Both the position numbers and the translations under genes were made by a program. Positions 5,570 through 64,000 of a stretch of DNA of 64,000 nucleotides are shown here, one piece after another. The DNA is from Bacillota bacterium (GTDB lineage: Bacteria; Bacillota_I; Bacilli_A; RFN20; CAG-288), in assembly GCA_036830315.1 (NCBI GenBank), contig DAISOU010000004.1, forward strand, positions 30,357 to 94,356, written 5' to 3'. Position 1 is the stretch's first letter. Each line of letters starts with the position of its first letter. The notes below the pieces were generated by a model. It worked only from the letters and a program-made list of their open reading frames with translations, did no database searches and had not been told where the DNA came from.

Positions 5570-7405
5570 TTAAGCTAATTCGGTTTTGCCTGTATAGAGG
5601 TCATAGTAAGGACCTTTGTTTTTCAAAAGCTCTTCCTGTCTTCCCCGTTCAATGATATTTCCATTGTCGAGCACGATTATTTCGTCAGCATCGCGGATGG
5701 TGCTTAAGCGGTGGGCGATGATGATGACAGTTCTTTCTTTCATCAGTTTATTCAGTCCTTCATGGATGAGTTCTTCGCTTCTGGTGTCGATGTTGGATGT
5801 AGCTTCATCCAATATCAAAACCGGAGGCTGATTGAGAGTGGCACGAGTCAATCCCAAAAGCTGTCTCTGTCCTTCTGATAAGTTTGAGCCGTCATCAAAA
5901 AGCATAGTTGAATAACCGCGGGGCATTCTCTTGATGAAGCTGTCTGAGCAGCTGTTGACTGATGCTTCTTCGATTTCTTGCTGAGAAGAATGACGCCTGA
6001 CATAACGGATATTGTCTTCGATAGTTCCTGTGAACAGATGAGTATCCTGAGTAACCATCGACAAAGCTCTTCTGAGAGAATCTAATTTGATATCTTCAAT
6101 ATTGATTCCGTCATAGGTGATACGACCAGAATCAAGAGGATAGAATCTGGCGAGAAGGGAGATAATAGTTGTTTTTCCGGCTCCAGTCGATCCGACAAAT
6201 GCGACCTTTTGACCTGGATATGCCTCAAAGGAGACATTCTTCAATATTGGATGACCTTTACTATAGCTGAAACAGACATTTTCAAACTTGATTACGCCAG
6301 CTAACGGCACTTCTTTAAGAGAACCATCCTTATTTTTAAAGCTCCAGACGTATCTGTCTTTGAAGGTCTTGTCTTCATTCTTCCTGAGAAGCTGAACCTG
6401 TCCGTTATCTTCTTCGTTCTTCTCATCGAGGAAGGAGAATATTCGTTCAGCACCGGCTAAGCCTGAGAGGATGTTGTTGATATGCATAGTCAGGTAGTTG
6501 AAAGGCTGACAGGCGGTTCTCACAAAGACTAAGTAGGAAGAAAGTCCGCCGATACCAGAAGACAATAATCCATTGGCTAAAAAGAGACAGCCGACTATCG
6601 AGGAGACGGCAAAATTGAAGTAGCTCAGGGAGACATTCACCGGTATGGCAAGCTGAGTGTGGAAGAAGGCTTCCTGGCTGGCTTTCCGCCACTGGTCATT
6701 GGCTTTGTCAAAAGCCTGAAGACTTTCTTCTTCGTGGTTGAAGGCTTTCATGACCTTGATGCCGGCGATATCTTCTTCGACTCTGGAGTTGACATCGGAA
6801 AGACAGTCCTGCTGGGCCTTGAAATACTTTCTGGCTGCCCGGGAATTTAAGAACATGAAGAGGAACATCAGTATCAGGAAGAAAATGACTATCAGGGATA
6901 GATAGACGTTGATGAGGAAGAGACAGACTATGGTACCGAAAAGTTTTGTGATAGTCAGAAAGATATTGGCCAGTGATTCGTTTAGCATGATGACTAGCGT
7001 GTCAACATCATTGGTGAAGAAGGTCATTATCGAACCATGAGTGTGGCGGTCAAAATAGGAAATGGGAAGAGACTCCAGCTTATCGATGAGTTCCTGTCTG
7101 ATTCTGAAGATCACCTTCTGAGTCAACCTGACCATCAGCTGAGAATAGATGATGCAGGCAATGATCCCTACAGAATAGATGATTCCGATATTTATACAGA
7201 GAGAGGCTAGGTTCTTTCCGTTGTTATAGGCTAAATCGTTGATGACATCTTTCGACATGTAGTTTCCGATGATCGAGGCTAAGCCGACATAGACGGCTAA
7301 GACCATCACCAAGAGGAAAAAGGCTCTCTGTCCTTGGAAGAAGGACCAGAGTCTTTTGACAGTCGGGAGCATTTTTTTTGGTCTGGATGCGTTTAATGAT
7401 TTCAT
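5570..7405 (-). CDS. ABC transporter ATP-binding/permease protein (type B exporter, half-transporter).
   Basis: N-terminal 6-TM domain. Walker A GSTGAGKTT, ABC signature LSEGQRQLLGL, Walker B ILILDEATS. Confidence 0.9.
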   Translation of the reverse strand: MKSLNASRPKKMLPTVKRLWSFFQGQRAFFLLVMVLAVYVGLASIIGNYMSKDVINDLAYNNGKNLASLCINIGIIYSVGIIACIIYSQLMVRLTQKVIFRIRQELIDKLESLPISYFDRHTHGSIMTFFTNDVDTLVIMLNESLANIFLTITKLFGTIVCLFLINVYLSLIVIFFLILMFLFMFLNSRAARKYFKAQQDCLSDVNSRVEEDIAGIKVMKAFNHEEESLQAFDKANDQWRKASQEAFFHTQLAIPVNVSLSYFNFAVSSIVGCLFLANGLLSSGIGGLSSYLVFVRTACQPFNYLTMHINNILSGLAGAERIFSFLDEKNEEDNGQVQLLRKNEDKTFKDRYVWSFKNKDGSLKEVPLAGVIKFENVCFSYSKGHPILKNVSFEAYPGQKVAFVGSTGAGKTTIISLLARFYPLDSGRITYDGINIEDIKLDSLRRALSMVTQDTHLFTGTIEDNIRYVRRHSSQQEIEEASVNSCSDSFIKRMPRGYSTMLFDDGSNLSEGQRQLLGLTRATLNQPPVLILDEATSNIDTRSEELIHEGLNKLMKERTVIIIAHRLSTIRDADEIIVLDNGNIIERGRQEELLKNKGPYYDLYTGKTELA

Positions 7406-9177
7406 GCTTTCATCCCCTCGGTCTGGATCTTATAGATAGACTGATAGATATCGTCTATCTCTTTCAGTTCTTCGCTTGTTCCGATATTGTGGATCTTTCC
7501 GTCATTTAAAACGATGATCTTGTCCGCATTTTCAATAGTCGAAACTTTCTGGGAGATGATTATCTTTGTCATATGGGGAAGACGTGTCTTGAGATTGGAT
7601 TTAACTTCTTCCTCTGTGATTCTGTCTAAGGCAGAGAAGGAATCATCGAGTATCAGGATTTTCGGATTTTTGAGGATGGCTCTGGCTATGCAGATTCTCT
7701 GTCTCTGACCGCCGGAGATATTGCTTCCTGTCTGACCTAATTCAGTTTGGAAACCTAAAGGCAGTTTATCGACGATGAAAGAATAACAGCCTGCTATCTT
7801 GCAGCTTTCCTCAATCTGCTCTTTAGTGGCTTCTTTGTTTCCCCAGCAGAGATTGTCTTCGATAGTCCCTGAGAAGAGACGGGGATTCTGGAAGGAGATG
7901 GCGATATTTGATCTCAGTTCTTTTAGCGAATAGTCTTTGATGTTCTTTCCGTCGATGAGTATTTCACCTTCTGAGGCATCATAGAATCTTTCAATCAGGC
8001 TGATTAAGGTGGTTTTCGAACTTCCAGTCTGTCCTAAAATACCGACAAAATCGCCATCGGAGATATCAAAGCTTATATGACTGAGGACATTCTCCTTGGC
8101 TGTCTCTTTGTATTTGAATGAGACATCTTTGAAGGATATCGAACCGGAAGTTATTTTTTCCTTGGAGTCCTTGTTGTCTTTGATTTCATTTTCGGAGCTG
8201 AACACCTGTTTGATTCTATAGGCGCTGGCCTGAGATCTGGTGAAAGTCATGAAGACATTGGATAACATATTCAAAGAGGCCAATACCTGCATGACATAGC
8301 TCAAGTAGGCGGTGATGTTGTTGATGAGCTTACCGGTGGTGTCAGCTAGGGAAAGTTTTCCTCCGACATAGAGAACACCGATAAGGCAGGCATAAGTCAT
8401 CAAGTCCATCGCTGCCATATTCCAGGCGCTGACAGAAAAAGATTTTATTCCTATGTCGTTTACTTCTTTGTTCACCTTTGTGAACTTGGAGATCTCATAA
8501 TCCTTTTTGGCGTTGGCTTTGACTAATTTGATGGCGACTAAACTTTCCTGAGTGGTTCTATTGACGTTATCAAGAGCATCCTGGACTCTGATGAAAAGAG
8601 GCTTGGCCTTGATGATGATGAGAACTAAGAGGAGAGCGAGAACTGGAAGAACAATGGCGAATACTAAGGACAGGTCTTTTGACATCAAGACGGCAAAGAC
8701 GAGGGAAAAGGCTAATTGAATAGGTGCTCTTAAGATAGCTCTCAAGGTCTGACAGAAGGCATCGGAGACAATCTGAACATCGTTTGTGATTCTGGTCACC
8801 AGGGAATTGAGGCGGAATTCATCCATGTTGCTGAAAGAGAATTCTTGAATCTTCTTATATTCGGCTTTTCTTAGTTCATATCCTAATCCTCTTCCGGCTA
8901 TGGCCGTGAATTTGGCAGTGATTATTCCTAAGAATATGGAAACTAAGGCAAAAGCCATCATTATTCCGCCTATCATCAGGATATAATCCATATTAAGCGT
9001 ATAGGAGATGATTTGATTCTGTTCGTTCAATACGGGGTTCATTCCATAGTCGAGAAGTTCTTTCATCAAAAAAGGAATGCTTATTTCCAAAGCACATTCG
9101 ACAATGATGGTAATACAGGCAATAATGAAGAATTTCCTATAAGGCTTCAAAAACCTGAGCAGTGAATTTTTAAACAT
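7402..9177 (-). CDS. ABC transporter ATP-binding/permease protein, the heterodimeric partner.
   Basis: GQTGSSKTT Walker A, LSGGQRQRICIARA signature, ILILDDSFSALD. Overlaps the downstream partner by 4 nt. Confidence 0.9.
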   Translation of the reverse strand: MFKNSLLRFLKPYRKFFIIACITIIVECALEISIPFLMKELLDYGMNPVLNEQNQIISYTLNMDYILMIGGIMMAFALVSIFLGIITAKFTAIAGRGLGYELRKAEYKKIQEFSFSNMDEFRLNSLVTRITNDVQIVSDAFCQTLRAILRAPIQLAFSLVFAVLMSKDLSLVFAIVLPVLALLLVLIIIKAKPLFIRVQDALDNVNRTTQESLVAIKLVKANAKKDYEISKFTKVNKEVNDIGIKSFSVSAWNMAAMDLMTYACLIGVLYVGGKLSLADTTGKLINNITAYLSYVMQVLASLNMLSNVFMTFTRSQASAYRIKQVFSSENEIKDNKDSKEKITSGSISFKDVSFKYKETAKENVLSHISFDISDGDFVGILGQTGSSKTTLISLIERFYDASEGEILIDGKNIKDYSLKELRSNIAISFQNPRLFSGTIEDNLCWGNKEATKEQIEESCKIAGCYSFIVDKLPLGFQTELGQTGSNISGGQRQRICIARAILKNPKILILDDSFSALDRITEEEVKSNLKTRLPHMTKIIISQKVSTIENADKIIVLNDGKIHNIGTSEELKEIDDIYQSIYKIQTEGMKA

Positions 9178-54693: not shown

Positions 54694-56322
54694 ATGAAAA
54701 GTATCAAATATGTTATGTTTCCACTTCTTCTGCTCTCTTTAGTCTCCTGCACTTTGCCGTCGATCAATATCGGAGGCTCGTCTTTTTCATCATCTGACAG
54801 CAGTTCTTCAATTTCTTCTGGTAAAGAAGAATCTTCTGCAGTTTCCTCTTCGTCAGGTGGTTCTTCTGGTTCTGATGGTTCCTCATCTAGTTCATCAGCT
54901 GAGTTTCCTGATTATGTGACTGTCTATTCCATCAACGATGTTCATGGATCCATGCCTGAAAGTCAGAAAAAAGGAGAACTTGGAGTCGCTAAGCTTTCCT
55001 ATGCTATCAAGCATGATGCTGACTATAACCCTGAGACTTCTTTGATTCTCTCAGCCGGTGATTCCTGGCAGGGCGGATATCTTTCTTATAAAGAGAAACC
55101 TCTCACTGATCAGCTTCTTTCATATCTCGGTGTCGAGGCTATGGCTATCGGCAATCATGAGTTTGATTGGGGTGTCGATCAGATAAAGAGCTTGTCTGAG
55201 TCTTCTCCTTTCCCGTTATTAGGCTGCAATATCAGAGATTCTTCAGGTAACCAGGCTGATTTCTGCAAACCTTCTGCTGTCATTCAAAAAGGAGCCGTCA
55301 AATATGGTGTTATCGGTGCTATCGGCTCCGGTGAAGAAAGCTCAATAGCTTCAGGAATGCTCGGCAGTTATTCTTTTTCTGGCAATATTGATCTTATAAA
55401 GAATGAAGCAAAAAGCCTGACTGATGAAGGCTGCGATATAGTCGTTGTCCTTCTTCATGACGCTTCTGATTCCAGTTATACTTTATCTATTGCCAATACA
55501 CTGAGTCTTGCCGATAACAACATCTCCGGAATATTTGGCGGTCATTCGCATATGTTCCAGTCCTTGAATATCGGTTCTAACAATATGCCTTATGTACAGG
55601 GCGGAAGCAATACTCGCGGATACTGCAAGATGAAGTTTTCCACTCATACCGGCGGATTGATTAAAAAAGCCTATGTCCAATCAAATAGCAGTGATTTTGC
55701 AGTCAGCGATGACAAACTTGATCAGAATATATTAGATACGATTCAGACTAAGGAAACACAGTATCAGGCGGATGAGACTTTAGGTACTCTCGATTACAAG
55801 ATGACTAAATATGACGATGACTGGACCGCCTGCAATTTTGTCGCAACGGGAATGAATGAAGCTGTTCTTCACTACGGATATAAGAGCACAAGACCTCTGC
55901 TTGCAATTCACAATATGGCCGGCATCAGAGATTCTCTCTATCCTGGAAATGTGACTATCACCGACTTGTTTAAAGTATCTCCTTTTGATAACAAGCTTAA
56001 GTTGTTTAAGGACGTCAGAGGAAGTGTTGTCTCTAATTTAATCGGTACACAGACTTCTGATCATTCTTCCAAGTATTACGCTTTTTCAACTAGTGACTCT
56101 CTGGCTTTTGAAACATCTAAATATTACGACTTAGTCGTTATTGACTTTGTCTATAATTCTTCTTATTTTCCATCTTCTTTACAGAATGCCACTCAATATG
56201 ACTGCGGAAAAGATGGTTCTCTTCTCTACATCAGAGATGCTCTCAAGGATTACATGTCCTTTGGAGGAAGAGATGGCGGTAATGCCTTCTATAAAGAAGA
56301 CTTCGCCTGTGTAGCTGCTTAG
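54694..56322 (+). CDS. Surface lipoprotein 5'-nucleotidase / metallophosphoesterase.
   Basis: Lipobox LVSCT, Ser-rich linker, GNHEFDWG metallophosphatase motif and a 5'-nucleotidase C-domain. Confidence 0.8.
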   Translation: MKSIKYVMFPLLLLSLVSCTLPSINIGGSSFSSSDSSSSISSGKEESSAVSSSSGGSSGSDGSSSSSSAEFPDYVTVYSINDVHGSMPESQKKGELGVAKLSYAIKHDADYNPETSLILSAGDSWQGGYLSYKEKPLTDQLLSYLGVEAMAIGNHEFDWGVDQIKSLSESSPFPLLGCNIRDSSGNQADFCKPSAVIQKGAVKYGVIGAIGSGEESSIASGMLGSYSFSGNIDLIKNEAKSLTDEGCDIVVVLLHDASDSSYTLSIANTLSLADNNISGIFGGHSHMFQSLNIGSNNMPYVQGGSNTRGYCKMKFSTHTGGLIKKAYVQSNSSDFAVSDDKLDQNILDTIQTKETQYQADETLGTLDYKMTKYDDDWTACNFVATGMNEAVLHYGYKSTRPLLAIHNMAGIRDSLYPGNVTITDLFKVSPFDNKLKLFKDVRGSVVSNLIGTQTSDHSSKYYAFSTSDSLAFETSKYYDLVVIDFVYNSSYFPSSLQNATQYDCGKDGSLLYIRDALKDYMSFGGRDGGNAFYKEDFACVAA

Positions 56323-56380: not shown

Positions 56381-57763
56381 CTATTTTTCAAACTTTCTAT
56401 AGGATGTACTAAGTTTGATTTCAAACTTGCTCAGCTTGTCAGTGATGCTGTCGATATAGGATTTCTCGATTTTATCACAGGTTTCCTTGATGCTGACGGC
56501 CGCCTTTGTGATGCTTTCTGTTTTGTCTTGAATACTCTTGACACTATCCTGAAGGGACAGAAGAGGTTTATCTAGATAGGTTGTCTTAAGATAATCAAAC
56601 TGATTTAACAGTTCTTCCTGTTTCTGAAGATTGATTTCTTCTTTGATGCCCTTGAGGATCAGTTCACTGAACCTTTTAGTCAAGGAGACGATCATATTCA
56701 GGAAGGTCATCATATAGGCTGGTCTTACCACATACATATCCTTGAATTCGCGTACCTTCATTATCGGAATGTCATTGGGTTTGTCCATTTCGAGGTTGGA
56801 GACTAAGACGGCATAACGGCAGTTCTTCTTGGTTCTGTTTTCATCTAGCTTCTTATAGTAGAAGGCATTGGTCTTCTTATTTGTGGAATCGGGATTCTCG
56901 TCCTTCATATCCATACAGACTGAGGCCAATAATGATTTTTCCTGTCCGACAGTTTCCTTATCTGCATAGACTTTGAAGATGTAGTCGGCTTTGGAGCCCT
57001 TGTCTTCGGATTCATTGCGGACAACTACATTGTCTTTTTCCCAAGTGCAGTTATCTAATCCGTTCTGCATATAGGATTCGGCTTCTTTGTTGCACCAGGC
57101 TTCTAAGTCTTCACCGGTCTGTTTGATATTCAAAGCACCTTTCTGACGTTGGAGGGCACTGTACTTCTCTTCGCTTTCATGAAGCTTGTCTTTGAGCTCC
57201 TGAATAGTCTTGTCGTTTTCGCTGTTGGTTTTGAGACGGACATTTTCGATTTCGGTTTCCTTTGATTTCTGGAGGAATTCGTTCTGCTTGGAAAGCTCTG
57301 AGATCTTTTTGTCTTTCTCGTCTAGTTCATTTCTTTTTTCATCGTCATTTTTGATCTTGAGCTTCTGCAAGTCCAGTTCTTTTTGTACTTGGAAATTCTC
57401 AAGCTGTTTCTTTAATTCGTCGACTTTATCTGTATAAGAGAGCATAACTTCCTGCTCTTTGTTTTTGAGGGCATTTTCATTGTCTTTTTTAAGCTGCTCT
57501 AGCTGAAGCTGGAATTCTTTGATTCTGCTGCTGTTTTCAATGTCTTTGTTTTTAGTTTCCAAAACATATTGGTTTTCAATGACTTTCTTTGCTTCCTCTA
57601 GCTTTCTGAGGTAGACGTTATCTGTGCCCTGCTTTATTGCAGCATCGATACTGGTAAAATCGATTTTGGCTACTGAGGTCAGATCGATTTCATCGCCTTT
57701 TAATCCGTCCTCATCTAAAATCAGTGTATTCTTGTCTTTGACTATTACTTTAAGTGTCTTCAT
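56381..57763 (-). CDS. Coiled-coil protein with a C-terminal DUF2130/RmuC-like domain (possible PD-(D/E)xK nuclease fold).
   Basis: About 200 aa of K/E-rich heptad repeats, then a globular domain containing D(ADYIF)…(CM)DMK. RBS GAGGAA. Confidence 0.45.
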   Translation of the reverse strand: MKTLKVIVKDKNTLILDEDGLKGDEIDLTSVAKIDFTSIDAAIKQGTDNVYLRKLEEAKKVIENQYVLETKNKDIENSSRIKEFQLQLEQLKKDNENALKNKEQEVMLSYTDKVDELKKQLENFQVQKELDLQKLKIKNDDEKRNELDEKDKKISELSKQNEFLQKSKETEIENVRLKTNSENDKTIQELKDKLHESEEKYSALQRQKGALNIKQTGEDLEAWCNKEAESYMQNGLDNCTWEKDNVVVRNESEDKGSKADYIFKVYADKETVGQEKSLLASVCMDMKDENPDSTNKKTNAFYYKKLDENRTKKNCRYAVLVSNLEMDKPNDIPIMKVREFKDMYVVRPAYMMTFLNMIVSLTKRFSELILKGIKEEINLQKQEELLNQFDYLKTTYLDKPLLSLQDSVKSIQDKTESITKAAVSIKETCDKIEKSYIDSITDKLSKFEIKLSTSYRKFEK

Positions 57764-57860: not shown

Positions 57861-58523
57861 TTACTTATCCTGAGGAAGTTCAGCGGTTTTTTCGGCGGCT
57901 TCGGCAAAGGTGATAAGTCCGTTGTCGGTCAGAGGATGATGAACGAGTTTGGTTATGACCTTAAAGGGGATAGTCGCGATATCGGCACCGGCCAAGGCAC
58001 AGTCTTCGACGTGCTTTGTCGAACGGATGGAAGCACAGATGATCTTGGTTTTATATCCGTTTTTCTCTTTCAGTGTGACTAAGTCTTCAATGAGTTTCTT
58101 GGAATCCCAGCCGTTATCATCAAGTCTTCCTAAGAAAGGCGAGACATAGGTAGCATTGTTTTCCATGGCTAAGAGAGCCTGTGAGACTGAGAAGCAGAGA
58201 GTCAGATTAGTGGGAATGCCTTTATCAGTCAGATACTTGCAGGCTTCTAAGCCGTCATTGGTAATCGGCAATTTGATGACGATATGCTTAGGGTCAATCT
58301 GATAGAGTTCTTCGCCCTGCTTGATCATGCCTTCAAAGTCACAGGCAGTGACTTCAGCGGAAATCGGGCCATCGATGAGCTTTACAATCTGAGAGATGAT
58401 CTGTTTCTGACTCATGCCTTCTTTGGCGATGAGAGAGGGGTTAGTCGTAACTCCCTTTACATAGCCGTACTTCGAAGCTTCTTTGATTTCACCGATGTTA
58501 GCGGTGTCGATAAATAATACCAT
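57861..58523 (-). CDS. fsa: Fructose-6-phosphate aldolase / transaldolase-like (TalC/Fsa).
   Basis: MVLFIDTANIGEI…VTTNPSLI. Internal start chosen because AAGGAGAA sits 6 nt upstream. Confidence 0.8.
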   Translation of the reverse strand: MVLFIDTANIGEIKEASKYGYVKGVTTNPSLIAKEGMSQKQIISQIVKLIDGPISAEVTACDFEGMIKQGEELYQIDPKHIVIKLPITNDGLEACKYLTDKGIPTNLTLCFSVSQALLAMENNATYVSPFLGRLDDNGWDSKKLIEDLVTLKEKNGYKTKIICASIRSTKHVEDCALAGADIATIPFKVITKLVHHPLTDNGLITFAEAAEKTAELPQDK

Positions 58524-58685
58524 TATTTTTCTCCTTCTATTTTTCATCTCTATTATACGATTAATTAAGGTGAGTAACTTCAAAAAGAGTCTTTGTTTAT
58601 GGGAATACTTCCGTTTCATACAAAGAGAGACCTGAGTGACTCAGGTCTCTTGGTCTAAACGATATCTGACTTGGAAAACTATTGC

Positions 58686-61600
58686 CTAGTTATTATAGTT
58701 TTCCGGGTCTTTTTTAGCCTTGAAGGCACGTATTACCATCCAGGCTGCAAAGCCGGCGACAAAGACATAGACGATGACTGAGGCAGTTGTCAGACCGATT
58801 CTCCAAGGAGAGGTGGTATAGGTGACAATGGCACCTGGTGCCACTTCATTCATCCAGTTAGAGTTAGCGAGGGCATAAGCGATATGGTGAACACTGTTTC
58901 TCATAGCCCATTTAGCAGAGGATGAGGTAGTATCGGTGGCATTGACCTGCATGAAGTAGAGGATGTAGTCATTGCCGGAACGCATAGTCTGGTCACGGCG
59001 CTTGGCACTGCCACCTGACATATCGGAGATGACAGCGCCCTGGAAGCCCCATTCGTCTCTTAAAGTCTTAGTGACTAAACTATAGCTTCCAGAGGAGAAG
59101 GTAGTACCGACGTAGTTGTAGCTTGTCATCATACCGGTGGCTCCGCGGACAACCTTTTGTTTGTGATTGCCCTCTCCGTCAGCGATATAGTCGATGGTCA
59201 TACGGGATTCCTTGACATAGATTTCAAAAGGTTTCAGATAGATTTCTCTCATAGTCTGTTCATCAGCCCAGACACAGATATTGGCACGATTGGTCTCATT
59301 GTCATTTAAGGCGAAGTGTTTGACATAGCAGGTGACGCCCTGATTTCCGGCACCGGAAGTGACAGCGGCACACATCTTGCCGGCTAAGACACCGTCTTCT
59401 GAATAGTATTCGAAGTTACGTCCAGAGAATGCGGTTCTGTGAGTGTCACATCCTGGTGCATACCAGCCGGTATTACCGATAGTCAGACATTCCTGACCGA
59501 CGGCATCGCCGTAGGCATAAGCCAAGTCGAGATTGAAAGTGGCAGCGACAATCGGCTCAGTCGGCCAGGCACAGGTAGATAAATCGGTAGCTCCGAAAGC
59601 GGAATTTATCGTGAGTCCCTGAGGGCCGTCAAGTGACTTTGATGCTGATAGACCGATTGAAGAAAGAGGAGAGATGCAGTACTGATCTTTGAACATCAGA
59701 GTCAGAAGCTCAGATGAAGAATAATCGATCTGATTGAGCAATTCATCCCAGAGAGGATCAAAGTAATCGACTCCGCGGAAATTGGTTATGGACTGATTAT
59801 TGGTTTTAGAAGAGAGCGGATCTTCGGCGTGATAGACTTTGCTTCCTTCGACATTGCCTAACTCAGTGTCAGTGGCGACATCGAATTCCTGGAGGTTTTC
59901 AACTACCCAGTTAGGTGCTTCTTTTTCTTTCTTTCCGGCGACGAGATTGGAGACTGCAAGTCCGTTGTCTTTTCCTCTGGTCAGTCTTTCGACTAAGGAG
60001 GAATCAGTCATATACTTAGTGCTTTCTTCAAAATTGTTGGTGGCAGCTTCAAAAGTAGCCTTGGTATCGGCTTTGGCTTTGGCAGGAACACTTGTGGCAT
60101 TGCCGTTATCATCTAAGGCAGACTGAGCATCCTTTTCCGATTGACGGGGATTGTCATTATCAAAATAGATTGTGGAACCTATATCGAATGTCTCATCTTG
60201 AACTACGTCGTGACTGTTATTACGTAAGGAGATATGATAGGTTCCCTTATCGAGCATATAGCAGCCCTTGGTTTTATCGCTGTTTTCATGCTTGTAACTA
60301 TAGGAAGCCATATCATCAGTGTCAAACTTCAGCTTGAGAATTTCACTTTCATTGGGAGCGAGAACCTTTGTCTTTTCAAAAGCGGCTAATAAGGCAGTCG
60401 GTTTTTCAACACCGAGCTCTTTGTCTAAATCGGTATAAGGGGCAGTGTAATAGATCTGGGCAACATCCTTTCCGGCTACGTTTCCGGTGTTGGTTACTTT
60501 GACTTCTACAGTCACTTCGTTTTCATTTCCTTTAAAGGAAGTTATTTCTTTCTTGAAGGTAGTATAAGAAAGACCATATCCGAAAGGATAGACGACCTGT
60601 CCTTCGGTCTTAGTTGAACCATCAGCGTTCAATTCACCATAACTGAAATCGGATAATTTGGTGTCATAGGCAGTCTCATAGTATTTGTATCCCATATAAA
60701 CGCCTTCTTCGTATTCGATGTATTCGAAGGGATTAGAGGCTTTTCTGGAATCAGAATACTGCTTTCCGCCCATCGGAGCTAAGCCGTTGGTGTTGGTGTA
60801 GGCAAAACCATCGACATCGCCGATGTTCTTATAAGTGGGATCTTCTTTGACATCGCGGACAAAGACATCGACAGTCTTTCCTGAAGGATTGACTTCTCCA
60901 GCCAGAATGTCACTCATGGACTGGAATCCCTTGGCACCAGGACCGCCGACCCAGATGATGGCATCGATATCAGTGTCGTCAGCAAGACTTCCTAATTCCA
61001 TGGCATTGGAGGAGTTGATGACAACGACTACTTTGTCGCAGTTTGTTTTGGCAAGCTGCAAAGTCTCCTCTTCTTCAGGCATCAAGTCGAGGGCGTGTTT
61101 GACTTTATCAGTCGATTCAGCATCTCTGACCTTGCTGATACCAGCTGCTGCTGTTCCGGCAGCTGAAGCCTGGACATTTCCGACTTTGTTATAAGGAATA
61201 GAGAAGAGATCATTGTTCTCTCCTCCTGATCTTCCTAAGAAGACAATACCGGTTGTGGCAGAAGAAGTGATGTTGGAAGTCTTATAAACAGATTTGTCGA
61301 ATTCATAGATACTCTGATCAGATCCGTTATAGGTGTTAGTCCAATCGAAGTAATAGAGAACATCGTTTCCGGCCGTGGTGTCATAGTAGTATTTTCTGAC
61401 ATCAGTCGTACCGCTGACTCCTTCAAAAGTGTTGGCGACGTTGAAATTGCTGTCCAGGGCTTTCTCAGGAGAGACGACATAAGCGTCAGTAGTGACGACA
61501 TTTCCTGATCCTGATCCGCCATAGAAAGGATTCATGTAGCGATAGCCAAAAGGAGCGACATTGCTTTCTTTGGCCAGAGGCAGAGCGCCGTTATTCTTTA

Positions 61601-61907
61601 AAACGACAGTTCCTTCATCGGCGATGCTTTTGGCGACTTTGGCAGCAGCGGCCTGAGAACCAGTGTCACCGCCTGTGGATGTGAATTTGTTTTCGTAGTA
61701 CTTGGTGTTCCAAGTCGAAGAAGAATCGGTGTTGTTGATGACTTTGTTTCCTCTTCCTAAGTAGGTGTCTAAGGCGCTGGAGTAGACGTTGGCGACACAA
61801 GTCAAGGCAATCATCGCACCTGTCAAAACTAATAAGACCGGAGTAAAGATAGCTATGTTTTTCTTTGTCGACATCTTCTTTTTCTTCTTTTTCATCTCTT
61901 CTTCCAT
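58686..61907 (-). CDS. Membrane-anchored glycoside hydrolase family 3 (beta-glucosidase/xylosidase-like) with permuted domain order.
   Basis: GH3 motifs KHFALNDNETNR and GFQGAVISDM lie in the C-terminal half. TM helices at both ends. Start taken at the internal M preceded by GGGGAGGA. Confidence 0.8.
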   Translation of the reverse strand: MEEEMKKKKKKMSTKKNIAIFTPVLLVLTGAMIALTCVANVYSSALDTYLGRGNKVINNTDSSSTWNTKYYENKFTSTGGDTGSQAAAAKVAKSIADEGTVVLKNNGALPLAKESNVAPFGYRYMNPFYGGSGSGNVVTTDAYVVSPEKALDSNFNVANTFEGVSGTTDVRKYYYDTTAGNDVLYYFDWTNTYNGSDQSIYEFDKSVYKTSNITSSATTGIVFLGRSGGENNDLFSIPYNKVGNVQASAAGTAAAGISKVRDAESTDKVKHALDLMPEEEETLQLAKTNCDKVVVVINSSNAMELGSLADDTDIDAIIWVGGPGAKGFQSMSDILAGEVNPSGKTVDVFVRDVKEDPTYKNIGDVDGFAYTNTNGLAPMGGKQYSDSRKASNPFEYIEYEEGVYMGYKYYETAYDTKLSDFSYGELNADGSTKTEGQVVYPFGYGLSYTTFKKEITSFKGNENEVTVEVKVTNTGNVAGKDVAQIYYTAPYTDLDKELGVEKPTALLAAFEKTKVLAPNESEILKLKFDTDDMASYSYKHENSDKTKGCYMLDKGTYHISLRNNSHDVVQDETFDIGSTIYFDNDNPRQSEKDAQSALDDNGNATSVPAKAKADTKATFEAATNNFEESTKYMTDSSLVERLTRGKDNGLAVSNLVAGKKEKEAPNWVVENLQEFDVATDTELGNVEGSKVYHAEDPLSSKTNNQSITNFRGVDYFDPLWDELLNQIDYSSSELLTLMFKDQYCISPLSSIGLSASKSLDGPQGLTINSAFGATDLSTCAWPTEPIVAATFNLDLAYAYGDAVGQECLTIGNTGWYAPGCDTHRTAFSGRNFEYYSEDGVLAGKMCAAVTSGAGNQGVTCYVKHFALNDNETNRANICVWADEQTMREIYLKPFEIYVKESRMTIDYIADGEGNHKQKVVRGATGMMTSYNYVGTTFSSGSYSLVTKTLRDEWGFQGAVISDMSGGSAKRRDQTMRSGNDYILYFMQVNATDTTSSSAKWAMRNSVHHIAYALANSNWMNEVAPGAIVTYTTSPWRIGLTTASVIVYVFVAGFAAWMVIRAFKAKKDPENYNN

Positions 61908-61988
61908 ATGAATCCTCCCCATAGGGAATATTTCACCCTATTATTGATTACCATTTAACCTTTATTTTTATTTTGACTCTATGGCAAG

Positions 61989-62018
61989 TTCGTAGCGGGT
62001 AAGACTCAATTCGTAACT
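61989..62018. promoter_or_regulatory. Candidate LytTR response-regulator binding site: 9-bp direct repeats with a 12-bp spacer.
   Basis: TTCGTAGCG, 12-nt spacer (ggtaagactcaa), TTCGTAACT. Lies between the Agr-like operon and the GH3 gene. Confidence 0.35.
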
Positions 62019-62067
62019 TACAAAAGCCCTTACATTTTAAATATGATGACGAGGTGCAAAAGAATAA

Positions 62068-62103
62068 TAAAGATTAAAAAGAGCACCTGCTTCCAGGTGC
62101 TCT
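62068..62103 (-). terminator. Terminator after the histidine kinase gene.
   Basis: 10-bp stem agagcacctg / caggtgctct with a U-run on the minus strand. Confidence 0.65.
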
Positions 62104-62126
62104 AAAATCAGATAAAACAGAACAAA

Positions 62127-63443
62127 TCAGTCGTTTTTCAGCGGAAACCAGAAATCAAGGCTGAAGACGTTGCTTTTTGAAGAGACTAACATCCTGCCAT
62201 GATACTTCTCAGCTATCATCTCCATGCTACGCAGACCGAATCCATGGAAGCGCTTGTCTTCTTTAGTCGTGATCGGCAGGCCGTCTTTGATAGCGACATC
62301 TTTCTGACAGTAGTTGTCGAAATGAAGATAGAGCATTTCTCCTTTAGAGAAGACTTTCAGGGAGATGATTCTCTTTTCTAAGTCGGGAATCTTTATTTCC
62401 TCCTCGATGGCATTATCGAGGGCGTTGCCAAAGAGAGAACAGATATCCATATCCTCCATCTTCAGAAGCGATAAGTTTGGAGCATCGACAATATAACTCA
62501 GTTTGATGTTGTTCTTTTCGCAGTAGAGGGATTTCTCAGTCAGAACTACGTCCAGAGTCTCATTGCCAGTCTTAGCTACCTGATCATAGAGCATGATTGA
62601 TTTTTCAATCTCAGTCAGGCTTTTCTCCTTGGTCTCAGAATCATCAAGACTTCGAAGAGAGGAAATCTGATTCTTCAGGTCATGGCATTTGATGTTGATG
62701 ACATCGATATTGGTCTTCCATTGATCATATTGTCTTTTCTCGCTGTTGTAGAGACGTTCAAAGGTTTCTTTTTCTCTCTGCATGCGGCTTTTGTCAAAGA
62801 AAAAGAACTGGATAGAGAGAAGGAAGAAACAGCATAAAGACGCATAGATAAGGGCGATGGCGTTATTGGTGTTGCTGGGAAGAAGAAGCATCGACATGAC
62901 ATAAGTCAGCAAGAAGGTTCCAAAGGAAATCAATATGACATAGATATTGTTGACGGCAGTGTCTTTTCCTTTTTTGATTCTGACCACAAAGACAAAATAG
63001 AAGATTGTATAGAGGACTGCCATGATGCCAAGCTCTATCAATAGGGCATATTTGACACGATAGGTAAAGCCAGCTTCACTGATGATCAAAAGAGTGAGGT
63101 TATGAGATAGGTTTTGGACTGCATAGGCAGAAGAGGTATAGAAGAGAACCTCTTTAAAGGAAATCCGACTGGTCAGAAAGAAGAAAAGAGATGAAAAAAT
63201 CAGACAGAGCAGGAAAGAGAAGTTGAACCAGCCGCCCACAGTTAACGGACCTTGAGAGGAATAGAAGTTGGGAATGAAGAAAAAACCGATGTCTAAGGCT
63301 ACCCAGCAAAGCAGAGGAATATAGAAATACTTTCTTTTGCCAAAGACTAAGACAAACAAAAGCTGGGCGAACATTATCTCCGAGTAGAAGCTGGTCATAA
63401 AAGAGAGAACGGGAGTCAAGAACGAATTCCAAAAAGCATCCAT
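62127..63443 (-). CDS. Sensor histidine kinase, AgrC/ComD/LytS-like (HPK10, GHKL ATPase with polytopic N-terminal sensor).
   Basis: Six-plus TM segments, then a C-terminal ATPase. Translationally overlaps the upstream LytTR regulator (ATGA). Confidence 0.8.
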   Translation of the reverse strand: MDAFWNSFLTPVLSFMTSFYSEIMFAQLLFVLVFGKRKYFYIPLLCWVALDIGFFFIPNFYSSQGPLTVGGWFNFSFLLCLIFSSLFFFLTSRISFKEVLFYTSSAYAVQNLSHNLTLLIISEAGFTYRVKYALLIELGIMAVLYTIFYFVFVVRIKKGKDTAVNNIYVILISFGTFLLTYVMSMLLLPSNTNNAIALIYASLCCFFLLSIQFFFFDKSRMQREKETFERLYNSEKRQYDQWKTNIDVINIKCHDLKNQISSLRSLDDSETKEKSLTEIEKSIMLYDQVAKTGNETLDVVLTEKSLYCEKNNIKLSYIVDAPNLSLLKMEDMDICSLFGNALDNAIEEEIKIPDLEKRIISLKVFSKGEMLYLHFDNYCQKDVAIKDGLPITTKEDKRFHGFGLRSMEMIAEKYHGRMLVSSKSNVFSLDFWFPLKND

Positions 63444-64000
63444 CAGAAAGCCCCTCCCTGGAATCCTATCAGGTCATTGAGAAAAGACTTTTTCTTTGAA
63501 CGGGATATCTTCAGTCTCGTTTCATTGACTACCACTTCTTCTTCCTTGACGGCAGTCACATAGAATAGATTGATCAGATAACAGTTATTGCAGCGGGAGA
63601 AATGGTTTTTCTTAAGTGTCTCCTCTGCTTTTGACAAAGAACCTGTCGCTTCGATATCACCCTTGTCAGTGTGATAGATAAGAGAGTGATTCATGACTTC
63701 GATGTAATAGATCTGTGAGGTCTCAAGTCTTATCATGCCATCTCTTTTATAGATGGTGACTTCGCGGTCGGCGTATTTTTTCTTATAGGCCATGGCTTTG
63801 CTGAGCTTGGCGATAAATGTGAAATATCCGACTGGTTTTACGATATAGTCAAGCGCATTGACCTCATAGCCCTTGATGGCATACTGAGCCATGTTGGTCA
63901 TGAAGACTAAGGGAACAAAAGAGTCGATTGATCGTAGTCTTTTTGAAGCTTCCAATCCATCGAGATTAGGCATTTCGATATCCATGAAAACTACGTCGTA
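63443..64000 (-). CDS. LytTR-family response regulator (AgrA/ComE-like). N-terminus lies beyond the window end.
   Basis: Receiver-domain remnant …DVVFMDIEMPNLDGLE plus a C-terminal LytTR DNA-binding domain. Confidence 0.85.
   Translation of the reverse strand, partial: YDVVFMDIEMPNLDGLEASKRLRSIDSFVPLVFMTNMAQYAIKGYEVNALDYIVKPVGYFTFIAKLSKAMAYKKKYADREVTIYKRDGMIRLETSQIYYIEVMNHSLIYHTDKGDIEATGSLSKAEETLKKNHFSRCNNCYLINLFYVTAVKEEEVVVNETRLKISRSKKKSFLNDLIGFQGGAF

Follow-up and report, generated by a model that had tools for sequence, protein, structure and literature searches.

A pair of direct repeats in a 64,000-nucleotide stretch of a Bacillota bacterium genome (contig DAISOU010000004.1; this whole stretch is called the window below) is very probably a genuine LytTR operator of an Agr-like two-component system, one that is apparently dedicated to a single glycosidase gene and lacks quorum-sensing accessories. 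The repeats lie between an operon encoding a LytTR response regulator (RR) and a sensor histidine kinase (HK) and the start of a gene for a membrane-anchored GH3 glycosidase, and all three genes are on the minus strand. On the strength of the comparison of related loci, we think it likely that the repeats serve as the operator through which the adjacent LytTR regulator controls the GH3 gene. A first interpretation made from the letters alone (the sequence-only reading) had proposed such a link between the two-component system and the glycosidase, through a LytTR-type operator with 9-12-9 geometry; phylogenetic footprinting lends this proposal strong support.

The plus-strand repeats read TTCGTAGCG (61989 to 61997) and TTCGTAACT (62010 to 62018); as the sequence-only reading had stated, they are 9 bp long and separated by 12 bp, which gives a period of 21, and they agree at 7 of 9 positions (TTCGTA.C.). 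In the sense of the genes, on the minus strand, the distal half-site is AGTTACGAA and the proximal one is CGCTACGAA. The longer forms of these half-sites, TAAGTTACGAA (distal, 62010 to 62020) and CCCGCTACGAA (proximal, 61989 to 61999), share the core TACGAA at 62010 to 62015 and 61989 to 61994, respectively, predicted to be located at about −69 to −64 and −48 to −43. The proximal half-site fits the clade consensus C-N3-Y-T-R-C-G-A-A, which was derived from 26 half-sites. Characterized LytTR promoters have two 9-bp repeats with a 12-bp spacer, 4 to 11 bp from the repeats to a weak −35 element, and a further 13 to 17 bp to a −10 element that is often TGn-extended; lineages conserve the sequence of the repeats poorly but keep their geometry (PMC6193735).

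A promoter of this kind can be drawn for the GH3 gene. The predicted −10 hexamer, TTAAAT (61953 to 61958, minus strand), begins 30 nt past the proximal core, the same offset as in orthologous loci, and would place the transcription start site near 61946. Between the repeats and this hexamer, GAGTCA (61974 to 61979, minus strand) occupies the position expected from LytTR promoter geometry, 9 nt past the proximal repeat and 15 nt ahead of the −10, and with low confidence may be a weak −35 element. The locus thus has the class features of a direct-repeat operator with a 12-bp spacer placed just 5′ of a weak −35; the −10 spacing typical of the class is found across the clade, and the window's own, non-canonical −10 is a predicted element. 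The −35 element had earlier been assigned to TTGCCA at 61981 to 61986, an assignment that we do not retain: the hexamer, at 61982 to 61987, is separated from the probable −10 by 23 nt, and it is not kept in four related loci (L003, L004, L088, and L089; L-numbers denote the compared loci, and L001 the numbering of the parent contig, which reaches past the window end). The sole hexamer at a 17-nt distance is TAAAGG. No sigma-70 consensus promoter was flagged in the intergenic region, which fits an activator-dependent promoter.

The comparison of related loci carries most of the argument. The pattern T[A/G]CGAA-N15-T[A/G]CGAA recurs ahead of the orthologous GH3 genes of L003, L004, L039, L088, L089, L091, and L092, so the test at orthologous loci that had been suggested for the operator came out in its favor. 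The repeat takes the form TACGAA-N15-TACGAA in L003, L088, and L089, of TGCGAA/TACGAA pairs in L004 and L039, and of TRCGAC pairs in L091 and L092; looser versions of the core precede GH3 in L005, L009, L014, L016, and L090. All of these orthologue core pairs are on the GH3 coding strand, and the intergenic DNA is, by eye, otherwise dissimilar. In 10 of 13 loci the −10 starts 29 to 30 nt past the proximal core, including L003, L088, L089, L091, L092, L009, L014, L016, and L090, and the −10 offset in L003 is occupied by the same TTAAAT as in the window. In Gemmiger sp. An87 (L016), for example, ACAGGATACG-N11-ACAAGATACG is followed by TGtTACAAT. A degenerate version of the pair pattern had 21 matches in all compared DNA, 9 of them in GH3 promoters and the remainder in coding sequence.

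Conservation was also visible over a much shorter evolutionary distance. In a 97%-identical strain (L086), a block of ~130 nt extending from 22 nt 5′ of the distal core to the ATG carries only 2 substitutions, while the ~45 nt just upstream of this block are heavily diverged. This strain has TTTAAT at the predicted −10 and keeps the terminator stem of the two-component operon, with one change in the loop and one at the 3′ edge. A locus from a brushtail-possum metagenome (L087, 4677 to 8180) encodes a GH3 protein 68% identical to that of the window but has neither an adjacent RR or HK gene nor a TRCGAA pair upstream, and so is a natural negative control, with n = 1.

The constant element across the wider family is the geometry rather than the sequence. 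We scanned the 200 nt 5′ of 60 GH3 starts for direct repeats at periods of 9 to 40, other multiples of three included, requiring a match of at least 7/8. Repeats with period 21 were found in 26 of the 60 upstream regions, compared with about 3 in shuffled sequences, and each of the other periods occurred in 1 to 9 loci. When the search was made within 330 nt 3′ of the kinase gene at loci with the order RR-HK-GH3, with a match of at least 8/10, 33 of 56 loci had a period-21 repeat, against 7.5% in shuffles. The sequence of the repeat varies by lineage (CCAGTTAGAC, CTTACAACCT, TATGCCAAAA, TAAGCG, and others), but its length, spacing, and position stay constant, and family-wide the proximal unit begins 40 to 44 nt ahead of a −10 that is often TGn-extended. 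The type of half-site tracks the similarity of the regulators: TRCGA-type sites accompany 8 of the 9 LytTR domains that are most similar.

At two loci, L036 (5126 to 5370) and L024 (~6950 to 8350), a perfect or near-perfect repeat and a promoter are located right after the kinase gene and before an extra gene, which in L036 encodes a membrane protein of ~90 amino acids (aa). The regulated unit can therefore include more than GH3, and since the repeats of L024 and L036 precede an extra small gene ahead of GH3, the period-21 counts are conservative.

Several observations weigh against an operator at this site. Taken alone, the repeat is unremarkable. An unbiased count of 9-mers matching at at least 7/9 positions, with a 6-base run and a 12-bp spacer, yielded 40 clusters of comparable repeats in the 64-kb window, 27 of them outside low-complexity sequence; this count replaced a pattern statistic (1 match versus 0.02 expected) that we discarded as post hoc and unfair. 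With a leave-one-out position weight matrix (PWM), built with this genome excluded, the site was the top-scoring pair on both strands of the window (16.8, versus 14.8 for the next), but the maxima of shuffled windows average 13.7 ± 2.0 (top shuffle, 17.8), which this score exceeds by only ~1.5 standard deviations, and the core of the motif is short. At position −5, a C is otherwise common but is missing from the distal half-site, and TTAAAT, the predicted −10, does not have the canonical A at position 2. About 40% of loci have no clear period-21 repeat in the scanned regions, some of them with short HK-GH3 gaps or intervening genes. The covariation between regulator and half-site is significant but confounded with phylogeny, the receiver domain giving a similar P value. 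Finally, there is no copy of the operator upstream of the RR gene, unlike in most characterized LytTR systems.

It is the comparative data alone that show the repeat to exceed chance. If it were a chance repeat without function, expression of the GH3 gene would depend on an ordinary constitutive promoter or on read-through, and both the 27 to 40 comparable 7/9 repeats in the window and the closeness of the PWM score to shuffled maxima would be as expected. Yet the same core, spacing, strand, and −10 distance recur in at least 8 independent orthologous promoters, where a rough estimate from the background rate predicts ~0.1, and period 21 is enriched family-wide. Read-through would also have to pass a strong terminator between the kinase and GH3 genes. 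To judge from these comparisons, an accidental repeat is scarcely credible and close to refuted.

The proteins on either side of the site are those expected of an Agr-like system and its target, and Pfam domains and the prediction of transmembrane (TM) segments agree with the earlier identification of a LytTR regulator and sensor kinase next to a membrane GH3. The 3′ part of the RR gene occupies 63443 to 64000 of the window (minus strand; Pfam LytTR, E = 2.2e-15, 57.1 bits against a cut-off of 22.6; Response_reg, E = 3.1e-10). The complete protein has 235 aa (L001, 9294 to 10001) and starts outside the window, on the parent contig. Its N-terminal receiver and C-terminal LytTR domain place it in the LytTR family (AgrA/ComE/BlpR class), and reading by eye revealed an acidic pocket, EDDD, and the motif FMD57IEMP, in which D57 is the predicted phospho-acceptor. 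The regulator scored far under the NCBIfam equivalog cut-offs for LytR and BtsR (54 bits versus 246 for BtsR). Against solved structures, its LytTR domain had no match at E ≤ 0.001, the matches obtained being to the receiver domain only.

The kinase gene (62127 to 63443, minus strand) encodes an AgrC-like, HPK10-type histidine kinase of 438 aa with a HATPase_c_5 domain (PF14501; E = 2.3e-24). Hydropathy indicates 6 to 7 TM segments with short loops over residues 15 to 214 and no large extracellular domain, and motif reading shows an intact H-box (KCH254DLKN), N box, and G box. With HATPase_c_5 and this membrane topology, the protein has the makeup of a cognate polytopic HPK10-type partner for the regulator. 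It reached no NCBIfam equivalog and had no sequence match in the PDB at E ≤ 0.01. The stop codon of the regulator gene and the start codon of the kinase gene share 1 nt (TGATG) at 63443, suggesting translational coupling, and the same 1-nt overlap is present in the gene calls of L003, L005, L089, L090, and L093.

The RR-HK transcript is predicted to end at an intrinsic terminator at 62103 to 62080 on the minus strand (a 10-bp stem with 6 GC pairs followed by the T-run TTTTTAATCTT), and the repeats are indeed 3′ of this hairpin, as had been noted. A stretch of ~170 bp separates the terminator from the GH3 gene and is untranslated. An Rfam scan of the intergenic region detected no RNA family; the only matches were sub-threshold and confined to the terminator hairpin, and a structured RNA was dropped as a candidate for this reason.

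The GH3 gene (58686 to 61907, minus strand) encodes 1,073 aa. The start codon first proposed, at 61907 and preceded by the Shine-Dalgarno sequence GGGGAGGA (61913 to 61920, minus strand), stands: the N termini of orthologues align at this methionine, and both the Shine-Dalgarno sequence and the ATG are retained in L086. Pfam places GH3_C at residues 100 to 407, an Fn3-like domain at 481 to 564, and the catalytic barrel (GH3 N domain) at 780 to 964, so that the protein has the permuted order sandwich/Fn3-like/barrel, with the catalytic Asp kept. The nucleophile is D962 (GAVISD962M, aligned with GFVMSDW of 2x40), and the KHF motif is also conserved. The best partial similarities were to models for arabinopyranosidase and beta-glucosidase, and no NCBIfam equivalog was reached. 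One TM helix is predicted at each end of the protein (residues 20 to 38 and 1041 to 1059). By this prediction both termini are membrane anchored, an uncommon arrangement for a glycosidase and one that the family conserves. The idea that these helices are specially conserved for contact with the kinase was unsupported, since in a three-sequence alignment, which is not decisive, the anchors were less conserved than the catalytic domains.

The linkage of these three genes is exclusive. The closest homologues of the kinase (40 to 63% identity, all metagenomic) are each flanked by an orthologous permuted GH3, while the other neighbors are unrelated; one of these loci is ordered GH3-RR-HK, giving two gene orders in all. 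A scan of species-representative genomes added 80 further loci with a kinase identity of 29 to 45%, most of which have a full-length GH3 homologue adjoining the RR-HK pair. These loci are from Clostridia, Bacilli, Bifidobacterium asteroides, Olsenella, and two metagenome-assembled genomes (MAGs) labeled Prevotellaceae and Sodaliphilus. Module carriers inhabit the gut, rumen, and insect gut and include Gemmiger sp. An87, Pseudoflavonifractor capillosus ATCC 29799, Bifidobacterium asteroides ESL0199, and Olsenella sp. KH3B4. A metagenome scan with the GH3 alignment returned two loci only.

When the open reading frames (ORFs) of 91 non-redundant loci were clustered, the kinase was present in 90, the LytTR regulator in 89, and GH3 in 82. 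The other ORF families occurred in at most 11 loci each, save for two clusters at 61 and 44 loci, which have no L001 member and are presumed to be shadow ORFs on the antisense strand. Neither an AraC-type regulator nor an AgrB-like protein was conserved with the module in this clustering, nor was any transporter family.

Gene content also bears on whether another regulator binds the repeats. AraC-family proteins likewise use direct repeats at a 21-bp period, as in the I1-I2 half-sites of AraC, and an AraC/PocR gene lies about 6 kb away on the same contig (L001, 4661 to 5557), with a near-match to the operator, AACGAA-N15-TACGAA, in its divergent promoter region (L001, 5545 to 5571). This near-match scores within chance, however, and among the 91 loci only the LytTR regulator and its kinase recur with GH3; no AraC gene flanks L003, L004, L088, L089, L091, or L092. 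For the family as a whole, an AraC-family regulator was rejected on the ORF clustering, and that one acts on the repeats of the window is very improbable.

Some genomes carry more than one module. Paralogous modules, each with its own GH3, are present in the same MAG in three cases (L018 and L052, L024 and L059, and L027 and L073), and two others, P0070 and P0120, are on one 3.07-Mb contig. The layout also varies in places: in L093 (3100 to 7650) the GH3 protein has 1,516 aa with an added He_PIG domain, the repeat is TAAT[C/T]CGGA ×2, and the −10 is nearer (about 22 nt), while in L035 and L040 the HK-GH3 gaps of 57 and 79 nt are too short for a separate promoter. In the latter two loci GH3 is probably co-transcribed with RR-HK, with the control point elsewhere.

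On the parent contig, the regulator gene follows a GH43 gene at a distance of 64 bp; DUF4867, an isomerase gene, and this GH43 gene form a string beside a divergent AraC/PocR gene. The full sugar-utilization string (L001, 3214 to 9229; FGGY kinase, AraC/PocR, DUF4867, isomerase with Fucose_iso_C, and GH43) is directly upstream of the two-component genes and may hint at the class of glycan on which GH3 acts. Within the 64-bp gap, a weak sigma-70-like match, TAGAAA-17-TACAAT, precedes the regulator gene.

The repeat had been expected to recur upstream of the RR operon, but we found no evidence of autoregulation. The 64-bp gap before the regulator contains no repeat, no locus has a second copy of its own repeat pair, and there was no excess of period 21 upstream of RR genes (11 of 75, within the range of other periods). 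The near-match at L001 5545 to 5571, in the divergent AraC/PocR-DUF4867 region, has TATCCT 29 nt and TATAAT 38 nt downstream and was considered as an autoregulatory operator ahead of DUF4867-isomerase-GH43(-RR-HK). It was rejected on its leave-one-out PWM score of 10.6, which is fifth in L001 and under the shuffled maxima, and autoregulation in general was set aside on the lack of period-21 excess and of second repeat copies. Read-through could still give feedback in loci with the order GH3-RR-HK.

The search for peptide genes gave a similar result. The sequence-only reading had reported no agrD/agrB-like genes in the window, which holds for the parent contig as well, where no AgrB/AgrD or ComC/ComAB-type gene appears in the Pfam list. 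Across the 91 loci the module has no conserved fourth gene, AgrB/AgrD-like or otherwise, and small ORFs near the RR gene are unrelated to one another. The peptide or quorum signal that had been suggested for the system thus found no support. Two features of peptide cassettes, linked genes for precursor and processing or export and positive autoregulation, were thus looked for and not found.

A classical Agr/Com-type quorum circuit would need a pheromone encoded elsewhere in the genome, which may be the case, and GH3 would then be a density-controlled exoenzyme. The kinase is of the polytopic HATPase_c_5 class, and the characterized members of this class (AgrC, ComD, BlpH, PlnB, and FsrC) sense peptides. 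That the 91 loci share no AgrB/AgrD-like, ComAB/ComC-like, or other fourth gene, that the small ORFs are mutually unrelated, and that no autoinduction site precedes the RR gene all argue against such a circuit, as does the possibility of several paralogous modules per genome, each with its own GH3. That the two-component genes have a glycosidase as their conserved partner speaks against peptide quorum sensing, and the module is found amid glycan-utilization genes both here and in a published genome (PMC2914790). On balance, a density-sensing role is unlikely.

Together, these data suggest the following model for control of GH3 by the adjacent LytTR regulator. A stimulated, polytopic AgrC-like kinase would phosphorylate the regulator, a dimer of which is predicted to bind the two same-orientation half-sites (consensus C-N3-Y-T-R-C-G-A-A). 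Being 21 bp apart, or two helical turns, the half-sites are on the same helix face, and the promoter just 3′ of them would have a poor −35, with its −10 some 30 nt farther on. The bound regulator would recruit RNA polymerase and so switch on GH3 as a separate unit past the RR-HK terminator, while the two-component genes would be transcribed separately, probably from their own weak constitutive promoter. The system appears to be dedicated to its single GH3 target and not to activate itself.

The same sites could in principle serve repression or anti-activation, a silent kinase then leaving GH3 de-repressed. Sequence does not reveal the direction of regulation, and some LytTR proteins do repress at certain sites. 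The predicted position of the half-sites, at about −70 to −43, is nevertheless 5′ of the −35 region and clear of the −10 and the transcription start site, and the promoters lack a good −35; this is the standard activator layout of LytTR promoters (PMC6193735). Repression is accordingly an improbable mode of action here, and we infer that the regulator activates GH3.

As for the signal, our best guess is a glycan-derived cue tied to GH3 activity and not a peptide. To our knowledge, AgrC-class kinases are otherwise known only as peptide-pheromone receptors. We tentatively propose, as a possibility that we rate below even, a widespread module that crosses phyla (members in Clostridia, Bacilli, Actinomycetota, and some Bacteroidota MAGs) and in which an AgrC-class kinase reports a glycan-derived signal; the signal could be the product of the enzyme, or the doubly anchored GH3 could be a co-sensor that communicates with the kinase within the membrane. 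Lineage- and paralogue-specific half-sites would insulate the modules of one genome from each other.

On the far side of GH3, a transaldolase/FSA gene is located at 57861 to 58619 (minus strand), where the mechanical ORF has 252 aa and the gene call on the parent contig 220 aa (L001, 14921 to 15583); the first ~32 residues of the longer frame are probably not translated. Farther along, a lipoprotein-like 5′-nucleotidase/metallophosphatase with a long Ser-rich linker after its signal peptide (54694 to 56322, plus strand) is convergent with a DUF2130 gene whose product has a coiled-coil-rich look (56381 to 57763, minus strand), and these two genes show no apparent connection to the repeats.

Peptide quorum sensing is usually exemplified by AgrC/AgrA-type systems. 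Here this machinery and its operator grammar are linked to one glycosidase gene and lack pheromone genes, an arrangement present in 82 of the 91 loci. The circuit looks like a widespread and so far unstudied form of glycosidase control. Our literature search, which did not cover all journals, found no account of the operator, its geometry, the kinase class, the cross-phylum spread, or the mechanism, and no functional study of a LytTR-GH3 module beyond one remark from 2010. The term LytTR had zero occurrences in a term count of a 2024 review of hemicellulase regulation (PMC10766802). A table of gram-positive polysaccharide utilization loci (PULs) in Roseburia (gpPUL) includes an RR[LytTR]+HK pair (PMC5320581). 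If the operator model is true, it would supply a defined cis-element, with a model of the promoter, for a type of carbohydrate-active enzyme regulation that we did not find in the literature; lineage-specific repeats could predict which GH3 each paralogous sensor controls, and the question would arise of what an AgrC-like membrane domain senses without a peptide. Should the kinase indeed sense a glycan, the system would be to Gram-positive bacteria what the hybrid two-component glycan sensors are to Bacteroides.

The remark from 2010 concerns Butyrivibrio proteoclasticus B316, in which each of three LytTR regulators (in PUL7, PUL21, and PUL33) has in its vicinity a secreted GH3 that carries a TM helix at the C terminus (Kelly et al. 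2010, PMC2914790). This linkage, which we compared by the published remark only, is apparently the same as that described here and occurs in several copies per genome; the remark is one sentence and does not deal with the operator, promoter geometry, kinase class, taxonomic breadth, or mechanism (PMC2914790).

With respect to mechanism, the module resembles Staphylococcus aureus AgrC/AgrA (P2/P3), ComD/ComE, BlpH/BlpR, and PlnB/PlnC-D in combining a receiver-plus-LytTR regulator with a polytopic HATPase_c_5 kinase. The consensus sites of AgrA and ComE differ from the TRCGAA half-site core found here. The direct repeats of ~9 bp, with a 12-bp spacer, on one helix face and 5′ of a weak −35, are shared with these systems, in which they serve as an activator site (PMC6193735). 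Unlike them, the module has no genes for peptide precursor or export and no autoinduction site, and its apparent regulon is one adjacent glycosidase gene. The LytTR Regulatory Systems HdrRM and BrsRM of Streptococcus mutans follow the same promoter grammar, with about 10 bp to the −35, but their regulators have no receiver domain, are restrained by a co-transcribed membrane inhibitor protein, and are autoregulatory (PMC6193735). The system described here is a true phosphorelay, in which a regulator with a receiver domain is partnered by a bona fide histidine kinase, and it has no autoregulatory repeat; it is not of the HdrRM type. Escherichia coli BtsS/BtsR and YpdA/YpdB are LytTR two-component systems that answer a carbon nutrient rather than a peptide and activate essentially one target via direct repeats; their kinases are LytS-type (5TM-Lyt/GAF/His_kinase) and their targets are transporters, whereas the kinase of the present module is AgrC-like, of the HATPase_c_5 class, and its target is a glycosidase. 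That glycosidase shares with the permuted GH3 beta-glycosidases 5k6l and 5wug a catalytic barrel C-terminal to the sandwich and Fn3-like domains and a conserved nucleophile Asp, and it differs from both in its N- and C-terminal membrane anchors and in its genetic tie to a two-component system.

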